This document shows positions 750 to 43,436 of a stretch of 64,000 nucleotides of DNA, piece after piece. The stretch lies in the sequence record PV173775. One strand, 5' to 3'. The DNA is from Escherichia phage GEP001. Made by a program: the position numbers and the translations under genes. The stretch's first letter is position 1. Each line of letters starts with the position of its first letter. The notes below the pieces were generated by a model. The model had not been told where the DNA came from. It saw only the letters and a list, made by a program, of their open reading frames with translations, and did not search any database.

Positions 750-3446
750 ATGAAAGAATTTTATATCTCTATCGAAACAGTCGGAAATAATATTGTTGAA
801 CGTTATATTGATGAAAATGGAAAGGAACGTACTCGTGAAGTAGAATATCTTCCGACTATGTTTAGGCATTGTAAGGAAGAGTCAAAATACAAAGACATTT
901 ATGGTAAAAATTGCGCTCCTCAAAAATTTCCATCAATGAAAGATGCACGAGACTGGATGAAACGAATGGAAGATATCGGTCTCGAAGCTCTCGGTATGAA
1001 CGATTTTAAACTCGCTTATATCAGTGATACATATGGTTCAGAAATTGTTTATGACCGAAAATTTGTTCGTGTAGCTAACTGTGACATTGAGGTTACTGGT
1101 GATAAATTTCCTGACCCAATGAAAGCAGAATATGAAATTGATGCTATCACTCATTATGATTCAATTGACGACCGTTTTTACGTCTTTGATTTGTTGAATT
1201 CAATGTACGGTTCAGTATCAAAATGGGATGCAAAGTTAGCTGCTAAGCTTGACTGTGAAGGTGGTGATGAAGTTCCTCAGGAAATTCTTGACCGAGTAAT
1301 TTATATGCCATTCGATAATGAGCGTGATATGCTCATGGAATATATTAATCTCTGGGAACAGAAACGACCTGCTATTTTTACCGGTTGGAATATTGAGGGA
1401 TTTGACGTTCCGTATATCATGAATCGCGTTAAAATGGTTCTCGGTGAACGTAGTATGAAACGCTTCTCTCCAATCGGTCGAGTAAAATCTAAACTAATTC
1501 AAAATATGTACGGTAGCAAAGAAATTTATTCTATTGATGGCGTATCTATTCTTGATTATTTAGATTTGTACAAGAAATTCGCATTTACTAATTTGCCATC
1601 ATTCTCTTTGGAATCAGTTGCTCAACATGAAACCAAAAAAGGTAAATTGCCGTACGATGGTCCTATTAATAAACTTCGTGAGACTAATCATCAACGATAC
1701 ATTAGTTATAACATTATTGACGTAGAATCAGTTCAAGCAATTGATAAAATTCGTGGGTTTATCGATCTAGTTTTAAGTATGTCTTATTATGCTAAAATGC
1801 CTTTTTCTGGCGTAATGAGTCCTATTAAAACTTGGGATGCTATTATTTTTAACTCATTGAAAGGTGAACATAAGGTTATTCCTCAACAAGGTTCGCACGT
1901 TAAACAAAGTTTTCCAGGTGCATTTGTGTTTGAACCTAAAGCGATTGCCCGTCGATACATTATGAGTTTTGACTTGACGTCTTTGTATCCTAGCATTATT
2001 CGTCAGGTTAACATTAGTCCTGAGACTATTCGTGGACAGTTTAAAGTTCATCCAATTCATGAATATATCGCAGGAACAGCTCCTAAACCAAGTGATGAGT
2101 ATTCATGTTCTCCGAATGGATGGATGTATGATAAGCATCAAGAAGGTATCATTCCAAAGGAAATCGCTAAAGTATTTTTCCAACGTAAAGATTGGAAAAA
2201 GAAAATGTTCGCTGAAGAAATGAATGCCGAAGCTATTAAAAAGATTATTATGAAAGGTGCAGGGTCTTGTTCAACTAAACCGGAAGTTGAACGATATGTT
2301 AAGTTCAATGATGATTTCTTAAATGAATTATCGAATTACACCGAATCTGTTCTTAATAGTCTGATCGAAGAATGTGAAAAAGCAGCTACACTTGCTAACA
2401 CAAATCAGCTGAACCGTAAAATTCTTATTAACAGTCTTTATGGTGCTCTTGGCAATATTCATTTCCGTTACTATGATTTGCGAAATGCTACTGCTATCAC
2501 AATTTTTGGTCAAGTTGGTATTCAGTGGATTGCTCGTAAAATTAATGAATACCTGAATAAAGTATGTGGAACTGATGGTGAAGATTTCATTGCAGCAGGT
2601 GATACTGATTCGGTATATGTCTGTGTAGATAAAGTTATTGAAAAAGTAGGTCTTGACCGCTTTAAAGAACAAAATGATTTAGTTGAATTCATGAATCAGT
2701 TTGGTAAGAAAAAGATGGAACCTATGATTGATGTTGCATATCGTGAGTTATGTGATTATATGAATAACCGCGAGCATCTGATGCATATGGACCGTGAAGC
2801 TATTTCTTGCCCTCCACTTGGTTCAAAGGGTGTTGGTGGATTTTGGAAAGCGAAAAAACGTTATGCTCTAAACGTTTATGATATGGAAGATAAGCGATTT
2901 GCCGAACCGCATCTAAAAATCATGGGTATGGAAACTCAACAAAGTTCAACACCAAAAGCAGTACAAGAAGCTCTCGAAGAAAGTATTCGTCGTATTCTTC
3001 AGGAAGGCGAAGAGTCTGTCCAAGAATACTACAAGAACTTTGAGAAAGAATATCGTCAACTTGACTATAAAGTTATTGCTGAAGTAAAAACTGCGAATGA
3101 TATAGCGAAATATGATGATAAAGGTTGGCCAGGATTTAAATGCCCGTTCCACATTCGCGGTGTGCTAACTTATCGTCGAGCTGTTAGTGGTTTAGGTGTA
3201 GCTCCAATTTTGGATGGAAATAAGGTAATGGTTCTTCCATTACGTGAGGGAAATCCATTTGGTGATAAGTGCATTGCTTGGCCGTCGGGTACGGAACTTC
3301 CAAAAGAAATTCGTTCTGATGTACTGTCTTGGATTGACTACTCAACTTTGTTCCAAAAATCGTTTGTTAAACCGCTTGCGGGTATGTGTGAATCGGCAGG
3401 TATGGACTATGAGGAAAAAGCTTCGTTAGACTTCCTGTTTGGCTGA
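750..3446 (+). CDS. 43: DNA polymerase gp43 (family B, 3'-5' exonuclease)
   Basis: 898 aa, same length as T4 gp43; N-terminus MKEFYISIETVGNNIVERYIDENGKERTREVEY...; polymerase motifs DxxSLYPS and YGDTDS present. Confidence 0.97.
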   Translation: MKEFYISIETVGNNIVERYIDENGKERTREVEYLPTMFRHCKEESKYKDIYGKNCAPQKFPSMKDARDWMKRMEDIGLEALGMNDFKLAYISDTYGSEIVYDRKFVRVANCDIEVTGDKFPDPMKAEYEIDAITHYDSIDDRFYVFDLLNSMYGSVSKWDAKLAAKLDCEGGDEVPQEILDRVIYMPFDNERDMLMEYINLWEQKRPAIFTGWNIEGFDVPYIMNRVKMVLGERSMKRFSPIGRVKSKLIQNMYGSKEIYSIDGVSILDYLDLYKKFAFTNLPSFSLESVAQHETKKGKLPYDGPINKLRETNHQRYISYNIIDVESVQAIDKIRGFIDLVLSMSYYAKMPFSGVMSPIKTWDAIIFNSLKGEHKVIPQQGSHVKQSFPGAFVFEPKAIARRYIMSFDLTSLYPSIIRQVNISPETIRGQFKVHPIHEYIAGTAPKPSDEYSCSPNGWMYDKHQEGIIPKEIAKVFFQRKDWKKKMFAEEMNAEAIKKIIMKGAGSCSTKPEVERYVKFNDDFLNELSNYTESVLNSLIEECEKAATLANTNQLNRKILINSLYGALGNIHFRYYDLRNATAITIFGQVGIQWIARKINEYLNKVCGTDGEDFIAAGDTDSVYVCVDKVIEKVGLDRFKEQNDLVEFMNQFGKKKMEPMIDVAYRELCDYMNNREHLMHMDREAISCPPLGSKGVGGFWKAKKRYALNVYDMEDKRFAEPHLKIMGMETQQSSTPKAVQEALEESIRRILQEGEESVQEYYKNFEKEYRQLDYKVIAEVKTANDIAKYDDKGWPGFKCPFHIRGVLTYRRAVSGLGVAPILDGNKVMVLPLREGNPFGDKCIAWPSGTELPKEIRSDVLSWIDYSTLFQKSFVKPLAGMCESAGMDYEEKASLDFLFG

Positions 3447-3459
3447 TAGAATAAATCTA

Positions 3460-3481
3460 GGGACCTCCGGGTCCCTTTTTC
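3460..3481 (+). terminator. intrinsic terminator gggacc-tccg-ggtccc + T5
   Basis: Perfect 6-bp stem, 4-nt loop, followed by ttttt, directly after gene 43 stop. Confidence 0.7.
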
Positions 3482-3563
3482 ATACAAGTAATATAAATCT
3501 ATACTTAGGAAAAATAGATGATTCTGGACCTCTGGAATTCATTAAAAAATTTTTCACAAAATG

Positions 3564-3594
3564 GTTTACAAGACTGTTCCTCTGTGGTACTATA
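3564..3594 (+). promoter_or_regulatory. early promoter (GTTTAC -35, 18-bp spacer, TACTAT -10)
   Basis: gtttacaagactgttcctctgtggtactatac; matches the T4 early promoter pattern; 30-bp block nearly identical to promoter at 32737. Confidence 0.6.
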
Positions 3595-3627
3595 CAACTA
3601 TCAACTGATGCGGATTTGGAGAATGAA

Positions 3628-4008
3628 ATGAAAATCGCTATTTTGGTTATTGCATTGGGTCTTACTGGTTGTGTAGCTCAAGGACCAGTAGTAAATCAGT
3701 CTGATGTAGGAAAAATTGTAAACTGCTCAAGCAAATTTTATAATCCTAATGTTAAGTGTTATAAAGAAGCTCCAAAACAGACAGTAGAACAAATGCAGGC
3801 GAATTTTGACGAAGCTATTCGTCCAGATGAATCTGCCCAAGCATATCGTAATTCAGATGTAATTACACGCGAAGAAAAAATTGAAAGCTACTGCGCTGAA
3901 CTTTGGGCTAATTGGGCTAATAATTACCAATGGCGTACTGGTAAAAATGCTCCGATGGAGTATGTAGTGAATTCTTATAATTCATGTGTAAAAAATTTGA
4001 CTAAGTGA
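3628..4008 (+). CDS. small lipoprotein (imm.1-like), internal start of the 189-codon track ORF
   Basis: MKIAILVIALGLTGC signal peptide with lipobox; the track ORF start at 3439 overlaps gene 43 and includes the promoter, so the Met at 3628 is preferred. Confidence 0.55.
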   Translation: MKIAILVIALGLTGCVAQGPVVNQSDVGKIVNCSSKFYNPNVKCYKEAPKQTVEQMQANFDEAIRPDESAQAYRNSDVITREEKIESYCAELWANWANNYQWRTGKNAPMEYVVNSYNSCVKNLTK

Positions 4009-4015
4009 GGAAAAC

Positions 4016-4267
4016 ATGGAAACTTTAGTAGCAGGTTCAATTTTTATGGTTTTAGTTTCAGGCGTGTTGGCTATTATTATATACATGCTTCCATGGTTCA
4101 TCGCCTTGATGCGTGGGTCAAAATCGACAGTAGGAATCTTTTTCACATCTTTACTGTTTAACTGGTCAATTATTGGTTGGTTTATTACATTTATTTGGTC
4201 AATTGCGGGTGAAACTAAAAAATCTGCACAGCAAAACCAAGTAATTATCATCAGAGAGAAGGAATGA
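4016..4267 (+). CDS. imm: Imm superinfection immunity membrane protein
   Basis: 83 aa, two hydrophobic segments, position between 43 and 42 as in T4. Confidence 0.8.
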   Translation: METLVAGSIFMVLVSGVLAIIIYMLPWFIALMRGSKSTVGIFFTSLLFNWSIIGWFITFIWSIAGETKKSAQQNQVIIIREKE

Positions 4268-4413
4268 AAAGCAAAATTATAGCAGTGTTGCTTTTAATCT
4301 TGATGATTATAATAAGTATATACTATAGTGTAACGGTTCCTCTTATGATTCCAACGCTTATTATAGGGTGGAGTTTATTACTGTTACAAGTTAAATATGA
4401 ATGTATCAATTGA
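4264..4413 (+). CDS. small hydrophobic protein (49 aa)
   Basis: ATG overlaps imm stop (ATGA); MKSKIIAVLLLILMIIISIYYSVTVPLMIPTLIIGWSLLLLQVKYECIN; below the ORF-track size cutoff. Confidence 0.4.
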   Translation: MKSKIIAVLLLILMIIISIYYSVTVPLMIPTLIIGWSLLLLQVKYECIN

Positions 4414-4420
4414 GGTTTAA

Positions 4421-5161
4421 ATGATTAATGACTCTATGACAGTTGAAGAAATCCGTCTTCATTTGGGAATTGCATTAAAGGAAAAAGATTTCGTAATTGA
4501 TAAAACCGGTGTTAAAACTATTGAAATTATTGGTGCATCATTTGTAGCAGATGAACCTTTTATTTTTGGCGCTCTTAATGATGAATACATTCAGCGTGAA
4601 CTTGAATGGTATAAGTCTCAAAGTTTGTTTGTTAAAGATATTCCAGGTGAAACGCCGAAGATTTGGCAGCAGGTAGCATCTTCTAAAGGCGAAATTAACT
4701 CGAATTATGGTTGGGCCATCTGGTCAGAAGATAACTATGCCCAGTATGATATGTGTTTAGCTGAACTTGGTCAAAATCCTGATTCTCGCCGCGGTATCAT
4801 GATTTATACTCGTCCATCCATGCAGTTTGACTACAATAAAGATGGCATGTCAGATTTCATGTGTACGAATACAGTGCAGTACCTGATTCGTGATAAGAAA
4901 GTCAATGCAGTGGTTAACATGCGTTCAAATGACGTGGTCTTCGGATTCCGTAATGATTATGCATGGCAAAAATACGTACTAGATAAATTAGTATCTGATT
5001 TGAATGCAGGTGATTCAACTCGTCAGTATAAAGCAGGTTCCATTATATGGAATGTCGGGAGCCTTCATGTGTATTCCCGTCATTTTTATTTGGTTGACCA
5101 TTGGTGGAAAACTGGCGAAACTCATATTGCGAAAAAAGATTATAACGGTGAGTGGAAATGA
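4421..5161 (+). CDS. 42: dCMP hydroxymethylase gp42
   Basis: 246 aa; sequence recognised as T4 gp42 (thymidylate-synthase fold). Confidence 0.95.
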   Translation: MINDSMTVEEIRLHLGIALKEKDFVIDKTGVKTIEIIGASFVADEPFIFGALNDEYIQRELEWYKSQSLFVKDIPGETPKIWQQVASSKGEINSNYGWAIWSEDNYAQYDMCLAELGQNPDSRRGIMIYTRPSMQFDYNKDGMSDFMCTNTVQYLIRDKKVNAVVNMRSNDVVFGFRNDYAWQKYVLDKLVSDLNAGDSTRQYKAGSIIWNVGSLHVYSRHFYLVDHWWKTGETHIAKKDYNGEWK

Positions 5162-6000
5162 TTCAATTCGTAATTCCAAGCTATCAACGCGTAGGGGCAG
5201 TTTCTGCCCTTGATATGTTTCCGACTGATTATGAACCTCATATTGTAGTACGTGAACACGAAGAAAAAGCTTATTATGACGCTTACGGGTCTAGAGCTAA
5301 AATTATAACTATTCCTGATGATGTTAATGGAATTGCTGGTACTCGTAAAGCAATTACTGATATGTATGCAGGTCAACGAATCTGGATGATTGATGATGAT
5401 ACTACTATTCGTATGAGTTCAATGCGAAAGAAAGATGATCGTCGCTGCGTAGATAAAATTAATCAATTAACCCGTGAACAGTTCTATGAATTGATTCAAT
5501 ACGTGGAAGATGCCATGGATTGCGGGTATTATCATGGTCATGCTCGTTTACCAATTTTTAAAATTACTTCATCTTGGGGTAATTATCGTGAAAATTCATA
5601 TGGATTCACGAATACCTGGTATGATTTAGGAAAACTTACAACAGAACAAATTGGGTATGGAAAAATTGATTTATGCGAAGATATGTATGCATTTCTCAAT
5701 TTAATTAATCAAGGTTATCCGCATTTGGCCTTGTTCAAATATCTGGTTGTATCTGGAAAAGCACAAGCTCCTGGCGGGTGCAGTTCAATTCGTAGTAATT
5801 CTAAACATAATAGAGCGCTTGAGCAAATCAATAGAGAGTTTCCAGAGCAAGCTCGTTGGAAAACTTCTAATATTGAAAAACGAAAATCGTTGGGTGAAGA
5901 AGACGAGCCATTAAAGGTTCTTCGCATGTGTGTTTCGCGCAAAGAAAAGTCAGAAGCATTTCATAAGTTTAATGCTATTCATCCAATAGCAGTTGATTAA
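5158..6000 (+). CDS. putative HMC-DNA glucosyltransferase (GT-A, DxD motif), at the locus where T4 has beta-gt
   Basis: 280 aa from the ATG overlapping the gene 42 stop; WMIDDDTTI DxD motif; not the 351-aa T4 beta-gt; T2/T6 are known to carry a beta-alpha-glucosyltransferase here. Confidence 0.55.
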   Translation: MIQFVIPSYQRVGAVSALDMFPTDYEPHIVVREHEEKAYYDAYGSRAKIITIPDDVNGIAGTRKAITDMYAGQRIWMIDDDTTIRMSSMRKKDDRRCVDKINQLTREQFYELIQYVEDAMDCGYYHGHARLPIFKITSSWGNYRENSYGFTNTWYDLGKLTTEQIGYGKIDLCEDMYAFLNLINQGYPHLALFKYLVVSGKAQAPGGCSSIRSNSKHNRALEQINREFPEQARWKTSNIEKRKSLGEEDEPLKVLRMCVSRKEKSEAFHKFNAIHPIAVD

Positions 6001-6077
6001 TGCCTAAATTTATTGTGTTATAATTACTCTATCTTTAACCAGTGAGGAAAATATAATGATGCCTATGGAAAAAATGA

Positions 6078-7259
6078 ATGTCTATTGCAGATTTAAAATC
6101 CCGTTTGATTAAAGCTTCCACTTCTAAAATGACTGCTGAACTGACTACATCTAAATTCTTTAATGAAAAGGATGTAATCCGTACAAAAATCCCAATGCTT
6201 AATATCGCTATTTCTGGTGCGATTGATGGTGGTATGCAGTCTGGTTTAACCATTTTTGCAGGTCCTTCTAAACACTTTAAATCAAATATGTCTTTGACTA
6301 TGGTTGCGGCGTATTTGAACAAATATCCTGACGCAGTTTGTCTATTCTATGATAGCGAATTTGGTATTACTCCAGCTTATTTGCGATCCATGGGAGTTGA
6401 CCCGGAACGAGTAATTCATACACCAATCCAGTCAGTTGAACAACTGAAAATTGATATGGTGAATCAGCTTGAAGCTATTGAGCGTGGTGAAAAGGTTATT
6501 GTATTCATCGACTCAATCGGTAATATGGCTTCTAAGAAAGAAACGGAAGATGCCTTGAATGAAAAATCTGTGGCAGATATGACTCGTGCTAAATCACTGA
6601 AGTCATTATTCCGTATTGTTACTCCTTATTTTAGTATTAAAAACATTCCATGTGTTGCGGTTAACCATACAATTGAAACAATTGAAATGTTTAGTAAAAC
6701 CGTGATGACAGGTGGTACAGGCGTAATGTATTCGGCTGATACTGTATTCATTATCGGTAAACGTCAGATTAAAGATGGTTCTGATCTTCAGGGGTATCAA
6801 TTTGTTCTAAATGTAGAAAAATCTCGTACTGTCAAAGAAAAAAGTAAATTCTTTATTGATGTTAAATTTGACGGTGGTATCGATCCTTATTCTGGATTGT
6901 TAGATATGGCTCTTGAATTAGGATTTGTGGTAAAACCTAAAAATGGCTGGTATGCTCGTGAATTTCTTGACGAAGAAACCGGCGAGATGATTCGCGAAGA
7001 AAAATCTTGGCGTGCAAAAGATACCAATTGCACTACATTCTGGGGTCCTTTATTTAAACATCAGCCATTCCGAGATGCTATTAAACGTGCTTATCAGTTA
7101 GGTGCTATTGATAGCAATGAAATTGTTGAAGCTGAAGTTGATGAATTGATTAACTCAAAGGTTGAAAAATTTAAATCTCCAGAAAGTAAAAGTAAATCAG
7201 TAGCTGATTTAGAAACTGACCTAGATCAGTTAAGTGATATGGAAGAATTTAATGAATAA
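6078..7259 (+). CDS. uvsX: UvsX recombinase (RecA/Rad51 family)
   Basis: 393 aa; Walker A GPSKHFKS; sequence recognised as T4 UvsX. Confidence 0.95.
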   Translation: MSIADLKSRLIKASTSKMTAELTTSKFFNEKDVIRTKIPMLNIAISGAIDGGMQSGLTIFAGPSKHFKSNMSLTMVAAYLNKYPDAVCLFYDSEFGITPAYLRSMGVDPERVIHTPIQSVEQLKIDMVNQLEAIERGEKVIVFIDSIGNMASKKETEDALNEKSVADMTRAKSLKSLFRIVTPYFSIKNIPCVAVNHTIETIEMFSKTVMTGGTGVMYSADTVFIIGKRQIKDGSDLQGYQFVLNVEKSRTVKEKSKFFIDVKFDGGIDPYSGLLDMALELGFVVKPKNGWYAREFLDEETGEMIREEKSWRAKDTNCTTFWGPLFKHQPFRDAIKRAYQLGAIDSNEIVEAEVDELINSKVEKFKSPESKSKSVADLETDLDQLSDMEEFNE

Positions 7260-25870: not shown

Positions 25871-25922
25871 AGCTTTATGATTACCGGAGTATAATATTCC
25901 CGAAACCAAACGAGGATAAGTG

Positions 25923-27740
25923 ATGATTAAGAATGAAATTAAAATTCTGAGCGATATTGAACATATCAAAAAGCGTAGCGGCATGTACATTGGTTCTTCT
26001 GCTAATGAAATGCATGAGCGCTTTCTGTTTGGTAAATGGGAAAGTGTTCAGTATGTACCTGGTCTTGTTAAGCTTATTGATGAAATTATCGATAACTCAG
26101 TAGATGAAGGTATTCGTACTAAGTTTAAATTCGCAAATAAAATTAATGTTACCATTAAAAATAATCAGGTAACAGTTGAAGATAACGGTCGTGGTATTCC
26201 ACAAGCGATGGTTAAAACACCTACCGGTGAAGAAATTCCTGGTCCTGTTGCTGCCTGGACTATTCCAAAAGCAGGTGGTAACTTTGGTGATGATAAAGAA
26301 CGCGTCACCGGTGGTATGAATGGTGTTGGTTCTAGTTTAACTAACATTTTTTCTGTGATGTTTGTCGGTGAAACTGGCGATGGTCAAAATAATATTGTTG
26401 TTCGTTGTTCAAATGGCATGGAAAATAAATCATGGGAAACTATTCCTGGAAAATGGAAAGGAACTCGCGTTACTTTCATTCCTGATTTTATGTCATTTGA
26501 AACTAATGAGCTATCTCAAGTTTATCTTGACATTACGTTAGATCGTCTCCAGACACTTGCAGTAGTTTATCCTGATATTCAATTTACCTTTAATGGTAAA
26601 AAGGTTCAGGGTAATTTTAAGAAATATGCACGCCAATATGATGAACACGCCATCGTTCAAGAACAAGAAAACTGTTCTATTGCGGTTGGTCGTTCACCGG
26701 ACGGTTTTCGTCAATTAACGTACGTCAATAACATTCATACTAAGAATGGTGGCCATCACATTGACTGCGTTATGGATGATATTTGTGAAGACCTTATTCC
26801 ACAAATCAAACGTAAGTTCAAAATTGATGTAACTAAAGCACGTGTTAAAGAATGTTTGACTATCGTTATGTTTGTTCGTGATATGAAAAACACGCGATTT
26901 GACTCTCAAACTAAAGAGCGTCTGACTTCTCCATTTGGTGAAATCCGTAGTCATATTCAGCTTGATGCTAAAAAGATTTCACGTGCTATTTTAAATAATG
27001 AAGCAATTTTAATGCCAATTATTGAAGCTGCCTTGGCTCGTAAATTGGCGGCAGAAAAAGCAGCAGAAACTAAAGCAGCTAAAAAGGCTTCTAAAGCTAA
27101 GGTTCATAAACATATTAAAGCGAATCTTTGTGGTAAAGATGCTGACACTACTCTTTTCTTGACTGAGGGTGATTCTGCTATCGGATATCTTATTGATGTT
27201 CGTGATAAAGAACTTCATGGCGGTTATCCATTGCGTGGTAAAGTTCTCAACAGTTGGGGTATGTCATATGCTGATATGCTTAAAAACAAAGAACTGTTTG
27301 ATATTTGCGCAATCACTGGATTAGTTCTTGGTGAAAAAGCCGAAAACTTGAATTATCATAATATTGCTATTATGACCGATGCTGACCATGATGGTCTAGG
27401 AAGCATTTATCCTTCTTTGCTCGGATTTTTTAGTAATTGGCCAGAACTGTTTGAACAAGGAAGAATTCGCTTTGTCAAAACTCCTGTAATCATCGCTCAG
27501 GTCGGTAAAAAACAAGAATGGTTTTATACAGTCGCTGAATATGAGAGTGCTAAAGATGCTCTACCTAAACATAGCATCCGTTATATTAAGGGACTTGGCT
27601 CTTTGGAAAAATCTGAATATCGTGAGATGATTCAAAATCCAGTATATGATGTTGTTAAACTTCCTGAGAATTGGAAAGAGCTTTTTGAAATGCTCATGGG
27701 AGATAATGCTGACCTTCGTAAAGAATGGATGAGCCAGTAG
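25923..27740 (+). CDS. 39: DNA topoisomerase II large subunit gp39 (ATPase, GyrB-like), 39 and 60 in one ORF
   Basis: 605 aa; GHKL ATPase and TOPRIM motifs; single ORF with no split or bypass element, as in T2/T6. Confidence 0.9.
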   Translation: MIKNEIKILSDIEHIKKRSGMYIGSSANEMHERFLFGKWESVQYVPGLVKLIDEIIDNSVDEGIRTKFKFANKINVTIKNNQVTVEDNGRGIPQAMVKTPTGEEIPGPVAAWTIPKAGGNFGDDKERVTGGMNGVGSSLTNIFSVMFVGETGDGQNNIVVRCSNGMENKSWETIPGKWKGTRVTFIPDFMSFETNELSQVYLDITLDRLQTLAVVYPDIQFTFNGKKVQGNFKKYARQYDEHAIVQEQENCSIAVGRSPDGFRQLTYVNNIHTKNGGHHIDCVMDDICEDLIPQIKRKFKIDVTKARVKECLTIVMFVRDMKNTRFDSQTKERLTSPFGEIRSHIQLDAKKISRAILNNEAILMPIIEAALARKLAAEKAAETKAAKKASKAKVHKHIKANLCGKDADTTLFLTEGDSAIGYLIDVRDKELHGGYPLRGKVLNSWGMSYADMLKNKELFDICAITGLVLGEKAENLNYHNIAIMTDADHDGLGSIYPSLLGFFSNWPELFEQGRIRFVKTPVIIAQVGKKQEWFYTVAEYESAKDALPKHSIRYIKGLGSLEKSEYREMIQNPVYDVVKLPENWKELFEMLMGDNADLRKEWMSQ

Positions 27741-39316: not shown

Positions 39317-40105
39317 TTATACTCTTGGACCATATATTGCTCCAACGTTTTGCCATGTCGGTGTAGACCCTATGACGGCATAACCAGCAGCACCGCCATC
39401 GTATTCATATCCTTGACCACGAATATTACATCTACCTCCTGCGGAGCCAACTTCACCACCAGACCCGCCGCTATAGATACCGTTCACAGACCCTGCGCCA
39501 GGCGCAGAAATAGTACCAGCAGTTGCTCCTGATTGCATATCAATAGATCCGCCGGGCGCGCCAAACGGACGACCGCCGCCACCGCCAAAGGTCAATCTCA
39601 TTTGTGAAAAAGGAGAATAATATCCGCCGCCACCGCCGCCGCCGCCGCCAGCAATAGCTCCGCCATTATTAATTCTTAGTCTCCCACCAATATCATTTTG
39701 AATACAATGACCCCCAGCTGAGCCAGGACTATTGCTACCGCCATTCCCGCCACGGCCATACATCGTTACACCATGTATATTCAGTTGAACATATTCATTC
39801 GGTGTATCTCCGTACATGAAGAATAAAGGAACATCTTTAGAATATGATACTAAATCTCCAGTGATATTAAACACTATAGGTGCACTACCTGCCTCAAAAC
39901 ATCTATCTCGGAACCATTGGCCATTGAAGTTATGGTCTGCTCCAAGCGTGTGAATTATTTCAACAGATCGACCTATCATATTACTCATCCAGAACGGAAT
40001 GCCCATTCTTAATCGTTGGGCCGCGCCACCCATCCAATTTTGTCCTGTATTAACTACTGCAGACGATCCTACCCACGGTCCTGTTACTGCCATATAAACC
40101 TCCAA
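39317..40105 (-). CDS. 38: gp38 receptor-recognising adhesin (T2-type, glycine-rich motifs)
   Basis: 262 aa; GGGGGGGGG and GGxGG tracts; T4 gp38 is shorter and lacks these, T2/T6-type is about 260 aa. Confidence 0.8.
39625..39651 (-). repeat. (GGC/GCC)n simple repeat encoding the poly-Gly tract of gp38
   Basis: ccgccgccaccgccgccgccgccgcca on the plus strand. Confidence 0.8.
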
Positions 40106-40124: not shown

Positions 40125-43100
40125 TTATTTTAACAACGATTTAACTAATGCTTTAAGTTCTTCGATTTCTGATTTAAGTTCTGCAATTTCTGCAGTATGC
40201 TCATTGATTGCAGCTGTATTTAAACCAATTATACCGTTATAGTTCAAACGAAGTAAAGCTTCACCATCAGGGTCACCTTCAACCAATTCAGGTAAAATAG
40301 CTTGAACTTCTTGAGCTATCAAACCGGCGTTAGGTTCCCATTTCTGATTGCCTTCTTCATCTAGGCCTCGCTTCTGCATATAAGTGTAACCGTTAATTTT
40401 AGAAAGCTTCTCAGAAGCATTTTCAAATTTAACAAGGTCTTTTTTAACACGAATATCAGAACGGACATAAACATCGCGGACAAATGTGGAATAGGCATCG
40501 CTTTGTTGGATTAAATGACCAAAAGAAATAATAGCTCTTCCTTGTTCAGTCCACAAAGCACCAGTGGTATCCCAAAGACCTTCATGGAGATGGTAAGCGG
40601 ACGACCATGAAGCAATATGCATTCCATTTGCAACCATGTTAATACGACCGTCACCGCCATGAACTAACCCAGTGTCATTATCACCAATAACAACACATGC
40701 GCCTGTCCATGCAGGGTCACCTCCACCAGCTGATATTCTTACTCCAGCTTTAACCATGTCAGGAACGTACATGTTTCCATTATGGTGGAATTCGAAGATA
40801 GCTTGCGGATCGCTAGCATTTTCCTGGTTACCAACACGAATAATAGCCTGAGCCCATTGGTTAGTGATACGGCGCATACCAAAATCTACGCCTGATACGT
40901 ATCCTTCGTTAGTAATGACAGATTTCCCTTTGATAATTGGATAATAGCTATCATTACCTACGTAGCCAAAATCCACAAATATCGGTGCTTCTTGTCGCCA
41001 TTGGTTTGCCCAATCGCCAGCTTGGTGCGCAATCCAGTATGCTCCATTTATATAAAGACGGTCCCTATTAAAATTAAAAGTAGCAGACCCTTGAGGAGAT
41101 AAAGTAATTTCTCCGACATCATTAATGTTAACACCGCTGTTAGTTTGAAAACTATAAAACGATATAGCATTATCAGCGCCGCCATTGCCTACATACCAGT
41201 TATTAACACCACCTTTTTTACCTTTAACATAGCCAGCTTCATCTGCTGGATAATCAATAACAACAGCGTCTGAGTTGGTTTTAAGAGTTAAACGGCCTGT
41301 CATCGTGTCGCCTTCTTTAGCCACACGGGAGGCAATAGCATCATGAAGGTTGGTTATATCACCAGCAGAGCTAAATAATTTCCAAATATCAGAGAAGATA
41401 TTACCATTTCGAGCAATAGTAGCTTCACCACCACCAACCTGTACGTTATCTGGGAAGTTAACAGTACCGTCCTGATTAAAACGAGACGTATGGCCTTGTG
41501 AACCATCTTCTTTCAGATGATGAATAACGAATGTACCTGAATTAATTTCAGTACCTAAAGACCAAACGGATTTACCGTTTAGAAACTTCTGTTTAACAAT
41601 AGGATAATATTTGCTTACAGCATCATCATCGATTTCCTGGAAAATAGGAGCCGCTTGAACATATTGAATGTCATAACCGCCGGCACCCGCTCCATGACCA
41701 GTAAATTTAATATAACCGTTTGCTGCGAACGTATTGTAACTTGATTGTAAATCTGGAATAGTAACTTTACCAGTATCTAAAGCCATACTAAACGGGCGAA
41801 GTGGACCGATATCGCCATGTTTACCTTCGCCATAAGCAGTTGGAATAATATGAAGACTGCCTTCTGAACGTCTAAAAATAGCTCCATAATCTGCGTTCCA
41901 AATGCGAAGCGCATTCACTGCTCCAGATGAAATTTCGCCTGTTGTGTGAACTCCTCTATTTCCAGCAGTAACACCGGATGATTCAAATGAACCATTGACG
42001 TTCATTTCTACTTCACCAGTAGTAAGTCTTTGAATATAACTCATCCAGCTAGTTGCATCAGAAATTTCCATGACATTTTTACGATTACCTACACTAGGAT
42101 TAGTAAACGTATTACCCCATACAGAAATTGTCATATTATCAACTGAACTGCTACCAGTTGTGTTACCTCTAAACAACAGCGTAGAAGCATTATTACGACC
42201 ATCAATATTAACAGAACCACCAATAACGTCAATATTACCTGGAGTAACTAACAAACCGCCATGAGTATTAATGTTTGTGGTACCCTTACCGCGGAAATAA
42301 TGATGATAATTACCACCTTGGTAATATCCTAAAAGAGTCTGACCGTCACCGTATGCGTTATTATCATGGTAAGTAACAACAGTAGCCAAAGCATAGTTTT
42401 CAGTCGGAGGAGTAGTTAAATCTGTTCCATTAGTAGAATATCCAGCTACAAATTTTCTTAGGCTAGTTGTTTCGCTAGGGCTAAATAAAAATGTTTTCGT
42501 TCCATTATTGACGCTGAAATAATATCCATCCTGATGCCATTTAAATCCGGTATCATTATCGCCAAGAGAAATTGAAGCAGTCCCTAATTCAGAGTATCCT
42601 TTATTGCCACCAGGAGTACCAACAGAAATAGAATGGCCTGCTTTCAATCCACCGGACCAGGTAAACGACCAAAGATAAGTGTCTAAGCCATCTCCAGTAT
42701 ACCAAGTTATTCCATCATTATCTTTAACTTCATGGAATACACCAGCGCCTACAGCATTGCGCATAACACGGAGATGATTAATAGCAGTAGTGCTTTCAGA
42801 CAATGGAACGTTGTCTGCCATAGAATAAATGTCATAATCGCTCGTAGATTTATTATTAGTAATAACTCTATTTGTCAAAATCTGAGGAGTTGACATAGAT
42901 TTCCATGCTGATACTTCAGGTGAAGTAAATAGGCCACTGCCTGAAAATGCATAGGTGCTTTCATCACCCGCGGCGTAGTCTTTAACGCGGATATTAACTA
43001 CTTGCGTAGTTAATCCATCATTAGCCGGTGCATAAATGATTCCACGTTCACGATCAGCTGAATCATGAAAACGAACATGTGCTGTACCTGAACTTTTTGT

Positions 43101-43436
43101 AATAAGTTCTCCGCCTTCGGTCATAATCTGCCCGGCGGCAATAATATCGCGAGTTACTCGAGCAATACCAGTTAAATTAAAATTACCTGTCTGAGTGAAG
43201 GTGCCATTTAAAGTATAATCACCAGTTTGATTATAGTTTCCTATATGAATAACATTCCCGTCAATACTACCGCCCTTAGCAAAACCAAGATCAATGATAT
43301 TTCCTTGGTCGTCTTTAGTAAAAAGTACGCGGTCTTTTAAGTTTATAGCCAATTCACCTTCGGCTAATACTGAAGCGGCAGGACGTGCTCCTGCAGTTTT
43401 GCTTCTTTTAAATTGTATTTGTTTTAAAGTAGCCAT
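40125..43436 (-). CDS. 37: gp37 long tail fiber distal subunit
   Basis: 1103 aa; N-terminus [40 protein letters not shown]...; the C-terminal about 100 aa resemble an intramolecular chaperone domain with coiled-coil tail. Confidence 0.85.

Follow-up and report, generated by a model that had tools for sequence, protein, structure and literature searches.

Which glycosyltransferase does Escherichia phage GEP001 encode between gene 42 and uvsX, and what would it do to the phage's DNA? In T4, this slot is filled by two genes, b-gt for the beta-glucosyltransferase (351 aa) and segA for a homing endonuclease. We analyzed the window, meaning the whole stretch of 64,000 nucleotides from sequence record PV173775, where neither has a match. 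It is a Tequatrovirus (T4-like) segment, and over its first 25 kb many published phages match it at 95-97% identity. The gene in the slot is very probably the orthologue of the T2/T6 beta-glucosyl-HMC-alpha-glucosyltransferase, with the activity and pathway proposed below. Here, we describe the gene and its neighbors, then its family and predicted fold, and finally its likely influence on DNA glucosylation and the history of the slot.

The ba-gt gene and its neighbors

An open reading frame on the plus strand (5152-6000) includes an ATG at 5158 and a TAA stop at 5998-6000, giving 280 intact codons. The ATG at 5158 corresponds to the annotated start in orthologues, with a length of 843 bp. We refer to 5158..6000 (+) as ba-gt (also ggt, g-gt or TAGT), encoding a beta-1,6-glucosyl-alpha-glucosyl-hmC-forming DNA glucosyltransferase. 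The earlier note on this DNA had placed a 280-aa gene here in the 42-uvsX locus, and the reading frame, start, stop and neighbors all agree. Upstream is gene 42 (4421..5161, +; Pfam Thymidylat_synt, 6.2e-16), the dCMP hydroxymethylase gene for hmC synthesis. Its TGA stop (5159-5161) overlaps the ba-gt start (ATG, 5158-5160) in an ATGA at 5158..5161 (+), and both are probably transcribed together, with coupled translation. Downstream is the uvsX recombinase gene (6078..7259, +; T4_UVSX_C, 4.7e-39), and the order across the region is 43, imm.1-like, imm, 42, ba-gt, uvsX, 40, 41. When used as tblastn queries, T4 b-gt, segA and the alpha-gt of phage P8 matched nothing anywhere in the window (E > 0.9 for b-gt and segA), and no segA lies between ba-gt and uvsX.

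Substitutions in ba-gt are almost all synonymous. Phage ECO07P2 differs at 12 nucleotides, all of them silent, while the codon changes comprise 24 synonymous and one non-synonymous relative to phage P8, and 28 synonymous and four non-synonymous relative to T2. This pattern indicates a coding sequence under selection rather than a chance reading frame. The short antisense and out-of-frame reading frames within ba-gt had no support. Searches of the whole window with Rfam (gathering thresholds) and ARAGORN found nothing, and a promoter-like scan of 3400-6200 gave 17 hits, which is not above the shuffle expectation of 12.4 +/- 3.7. Within codons 13-18 of ba-gt, there is a GC-rich hairpin, GGGGCAG-TTT-CTGCCC (5194-5210, +), with a stem that is identical, synonymous sites included, in Tequatrovirus, Jiaodavirus and Karamvirus; phage Muldoon does not have it. 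This terminator-like hairpin shows no compensatory changes, and it does not fold convincingly better than shuffled sequences (z = -1.6).

Family assignment, predicted fold and candidate catalytic residues

The ba-gt protein matches PHROG 842 ("beta-glucosyl-HMC-alpha-glucosyltransferase") at 5.6e-89 and Pfam TAGT (PF20691, TET-associated glycosyltransferase) at 38.8 bits, above the curated gathering cut-off of 27.5. These two matches bear out the earlier description of the product as a GT-A-like DxD glycosyltransferase. The Pfam match takes in essentially the whole model (residues 3-207; profile positions 2-205 of 205), and the two share a GT-A fold with a DxD motif; the E-value of 1.2e-9 is modest for a member of the family. 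The T-even branch of TAGT extends ~70 residues past the C-terminal end of the PF20691 model, and it acts after dCMP hydroxymethylase and alpha-GT, not after a TET/JBP dioxygenase. No NCBIfam family was matched, and Pfam Glycos_transf_2 (PF00535) gave no hit at E <= 1. The T6 protein, under the name TAGT, has been modelled as a GT-A enzyme in a sister position to GT2 (PMC13216743). The ba-gt protein would work like a GT2 enzyme yet belongs to a separate sequence family.

Close relatives are numerous. By megablast, 479 phage records contain near-identical DNA (474 of them covering at least 80% of the gene), and about 480 Tequatrovirus records have ba-gt at the same 42-uvsX locus. By tblastn, 689 records match the protein, 177 of them with at least 99% identity; pSs-1, KFS-EC3, ZCEC15 and ECO07P2 encode proteins that are 100% identical to that of the window. 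A second band of matches at 63-66% identity comes from Klebsiella, Enterobacter and Citrobacter phages, and remoter matches include Serratia phage Muldoon (47%) and an alphaproteobacterial phage (24%). A word-indexed homologue search yielded 11 clusters. With hundreds of T4-like phages carrying it at the same spot, this ba-gt is nothing unusual, and its family has already been well described. Public records name the same gene inconsistently, as hypothetical protein, glucosyl transferase, alpha-glucosyl-transferase, putative beta-glucosyltransferase or glycosyltransferase like family 2, and OK274152 apparently labels it thymidylate synthase. The AP0188xx records of T2 and T6 include many product names that are clearly wrong, e.g. 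"major capsid protein" for helicase 41.

The WMIDDDTTI motif, from which the DxD assignment was originally made, occupies residues 76-84. Its aspartates, D79-D80-D81 (5392..5400, +; GATGATGAT), are invariant among homologues down to 32% identity, as are P7, S8, Y9, R11 and D175 in our alignment. Four of these lie in IPSYQR (residues 6-11; 5173..5190, +), a GT2-type N-terminal nucleotide-sugar binding motif in which R11 is family-invariant except for a His in T2. D175, from the pair E174-D175 (5677..5682, +), is ~95 residues past the DxD and is a candidate catalytic base by analogy with GT2. An AlphaFold2 model from an alignment of nine sequences reached medium confidence overall (pTM 0.74, mean pLDDT 71.5), with values of 85-94 across the first 80 residues and below 50 in the poorly defined loops 130-150 and 190-211. 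The model has a Rossmann-like alpha/beta/alpha nucleotide-sugar binding fold, and D79-D81 directly follow strand 74-78, which places the DxD at the end of the fourth beta-strand as in GT-A enzymes. Thus, the predicted fold is GT-A and GT2-like.

The family has no solved structure. Neither the protein sequence alone nor a profile recovered a significant relative among solved structures; the sole sensible match was the GT2 enzyme AvpGT (E = 0.25), whose DDDD aligns with D79-D81 in the profile comparison. Inverting GT-A enzymes of GT2 (BcsA 9fmv, WrtF 9omh, AvpGT 9jma, TarP 6h1j and TarS 5tze) share 9-16% identity with the window protein. Unlike these enzymes, its acceptor would be a sugar on duplex DNA. 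The T2/T6 enzyme makes a beta-linked product from alpha-linked UDP-glucose and is therefore expected to invert, as GT2 enzymes do. By analogy, we infer that the DDD (79-81) would coordinate the divalent cation and bind the UDP diphosphate, that the IPSYQR N-terminal loop would aid nucleotide binding, and that the base would be an acidic residue, probably D175.

Expected activity and the extent of diglucosylation

The earlier note pointed out that T2 and T6 carry a transferase for the second glucose at this position and proposed a comparison with those enzymes and with T4 b-gt. Over 280 aa, the window protein shares 99% identity with its orthologue in T2 and 98% with that in T6, both of which lie between 42 and uvsX (T2: AP018813, MH751506; T6: AP018814, MH550421). 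The T2/T6 genes (T6 SwissProt Q06718) share with the window gene the motifs, the locus and the ATGA overlap with gene 42. The length of 280 aa is shared as well, with the T6 record AP018814 at 279 aa. Four substitutions lead from the window to the T2 protein (R11H, K92R, I101V, P251S), and five, plus a one-residue deletion in the DDD, to T6 AP018814 (Y40N, D55G, K92R, I101V, R106H). Nothing in these differences suggests a different function. According to PMC11946311, which cites Winkler and Ruger (Nucleic Acids Res 21:1500), the ba-gt genes of T2 and T6 were cloned in 1993.

The two T6 records disagree in ba-gt. In AP018814 (4712-4992 of the locus piece), one GAT of GATGATGAT is missing, so that DDD becomes DD. 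MH550421 (2715-2995 of the locus piece) keeps the DDD, has an amber codon at position 10 (CAG to TAG), and is annotated from Met20. This reflects either laboratory stock variation or sequencing error in a model phage.

Orthology, locus, fold and motifs come from the present analysis, while activity and phenotype are carried over by analogy from published work on the T6 gene. In the proposed pathway, gene 42 would supply hydroxymethyl-dCMP for incorporation into DNA, and an alpha-glucosyltransferase would place an alpha-linked glucose on hmC. The ba-gt enzyme, as a metal-dependent, inverting, GT2-like protein of GT-A fold, would then transfer a second glucose from UDP-glucose in beta-1,6 linkage to yield gentiobiosyl-hmC. 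In P8, the closest relative sequenced across the region, alpha-gt lies ~7.6 kb beyond what corresponds to the left end of the window, past gene 43.

By setting the choice between alpha-glucosyl-hmC and gentiobiosyl-hmC, the enzyme would influence how sensitive the phage is to modification-reading defences such as Brig1, BapA and GmrSD-type systems, with the balance between mono- and di-glucosylated hmC as the determinant. This role, which the earlier note had put forward in general terms, is documented for T6 deletion mutants. T6 without ba-gt has DNA with alpha-glucosyl-hmC only and is more sensitive to Brig1, a glycosylase (PMC11078745), and deletion of the gene under the name g-gt turns T6 DNA into a substrate of BapA, which releases glucose (bioRxiv 10.64898/2026.02.25.707755). 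Because of this effect on defence sensitivity, annotating the gene is useful when the host range of candidates for phage therapy is to be predicted. These points have already been made for T2, T6 and field Tequatroviruses; the window adds a further near-identical copy and no new biology.

The homologous enzymes of T2 and T6 yield very different amounts of gentiobiosyl-hmC, 5% and 72%, respectively (PMC6024577). T2 ba-gt has His at residue 11, whereas all other aligned homologues have Arg; the window codon (5188-5190, CGC) also encodes Arg, as it does in T6 and in nearly all records. Using a 44-residue N-terminal peptide with H11 in tblastn, we found this variant in eight of 681 matching phage records, seven of T2 and one of SV76, the latter with the same length as T2 AP018813. 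Pattern scans of IMG/VR for the codon contexts gave 0 loci with H11 and 3 with R11, too few to inform. R11H, at a family-invariant residue of the nucleotide-binding loop, might be the cause of low gentiobiosylation in T2. If R11H does lower T2 activity, then R11 in the window, as in T6, predicts T6-like, gentiobiose-rich DNA, and we infer such a composition for GEP001.

The T2 values also bring in a reading that we consider unlikely, in which the window gene is a weak allele as in T2 and the DNA would be mostly mono-alpha-glucosylated, with a few percent gentiobiosyl-hmC. It gains some weight from the fact that only four residues separate the window protein from one that reaches 5% where T6 reaches 72%; a 99% identical allele with so low a yield means that the extent of diglucosylation cannot be read from sequence. 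What speaks against a weak allele is that the window has R11 and P251, like T6 and most records, while R11H is private to T2 at a family-invariant site, and that field Tequatroviruses with alpha-GT and TAGT have 40-67% gentiobiosyl-hmC by LC-MS (PMC13390438).

Two readings would change the enzyme's role altogether. Addition of the first sugar directly to bare hmC, as solitary TAGT homologues might do, is very improbable for this gene given its 98-99% identity to the T2/T6 enzymes, and deletion of the T6 gene removes the second glucose only, leaving alpha-glucosyl-hmC intact. Also, ~25% of hmC is unmodified in T2 and T6 despite the enzyme (bioRxiv 10.64898/2026.02.25.707755). The idea has its origin in TAGT homologues found without alpha- or beta-GT in 288 of 753 genomes (PMC13216743) and in PhiJL001, where a 24%-identical homologue adjoins a thymidylate-synthase-like gene. 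One could also argue from the lack of sequence-level matches to solved structures or NCBIfam, and from the low-confidence parts of the model, that the protein is not a glycosyltransferase and its DDD fortuitous; we find this scarcely credible.

States of the 42-uvsX slot and other features of the window

The statement that the gene "replaces" T4 b-gt holds in that both occupy the same slot with unrelated sequences: BLASTP of the window protein against T4 b-gt showed no similarity (best E = 3.4), which sets it outside the T4 beta-gt family. The two enzymes are alike in using UDP-glucose as donor and in forming a beta linkage on modified phage DNA. They differ in fold, GT-B for T4 b-gt versus GT-A for the window protein (PMC13216743), and in acceptor, bare hmC for T4 b-gt versus alpha-glucosyl-hmC for ba-gt. 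The word itself is T4-centered, as alpha-GT plus TAGT is the majority state: it is the usual combination, and the T4-type alpha-GT plus beta-GT occurs in six of 753 genomes (PMC13216743). The synteny, with TAGT in the position of T4 beta-gt, is explicit in PMC13390438, and two papers from 2026 report both this position and the relative frequency of the two combinations; the earlier proposal was therefore correct yet already known, in nearly the same words.

The slot has further states in related phages. Enterobacter phage myPSH1140 (Karamvirus; 2501-4404 of the locus piece) and Serratia phage Muldoon (Muldoonvirus; 2492-4440) have TAGT next to a T4-type beta-gt between 42 and uvsX, and Klebsiella phage PKO111 (Jiaodavirus) has TAGT alone. 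The 42-uvsX slot is therefore a glycosyltransferase site with several states, and T4 and T2/T6 may differ through differential loss, starting from an ancestor with both genes, and not through replacement. Combining the two suggestions, an allele at residue 11 would set the ratio of mono- to di-glucosylation, and the slot would ancestrally have held TAGT plus beta-gt, with opposite single losses in T4 and in T2, T6 and the window. We offer this combination tentatively, as possible but somewhat doubtful in its entirety.

Between imm and gene 42, a 49-codon reading frame (4264-4413, +) encodes a very hydrophobic peptide (MKSKIIAVLLLILMIIISIYY...), and its ATG overlaps the imm stop in an ATGA. It is intact in T4, T2, T6, ECO07P2 and P8 at 90-94% amino-acid identity, with conservative replacements and few second-position changes, and is unannotated in all five records. 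By this pattern of conservation, it could be an overlooked gene for a small membrane protein.

At the position of the split T4 topoisomerase genes 39 and 60, the window has one reading frame of 606 codons (25920-27740, +), which we take to be the unsplit, T2-like arrangement without the translational bypass of gene 60. In the tail-fibre region, a 262-codon reading frame (39317-40105, -) lies downstream of one of 1103 codons (40125-43436, -). Judged by size and position, the pair is more in line with a T2-type gp38 adhesin and gp37 than with a T4-type gp38 chaperone.
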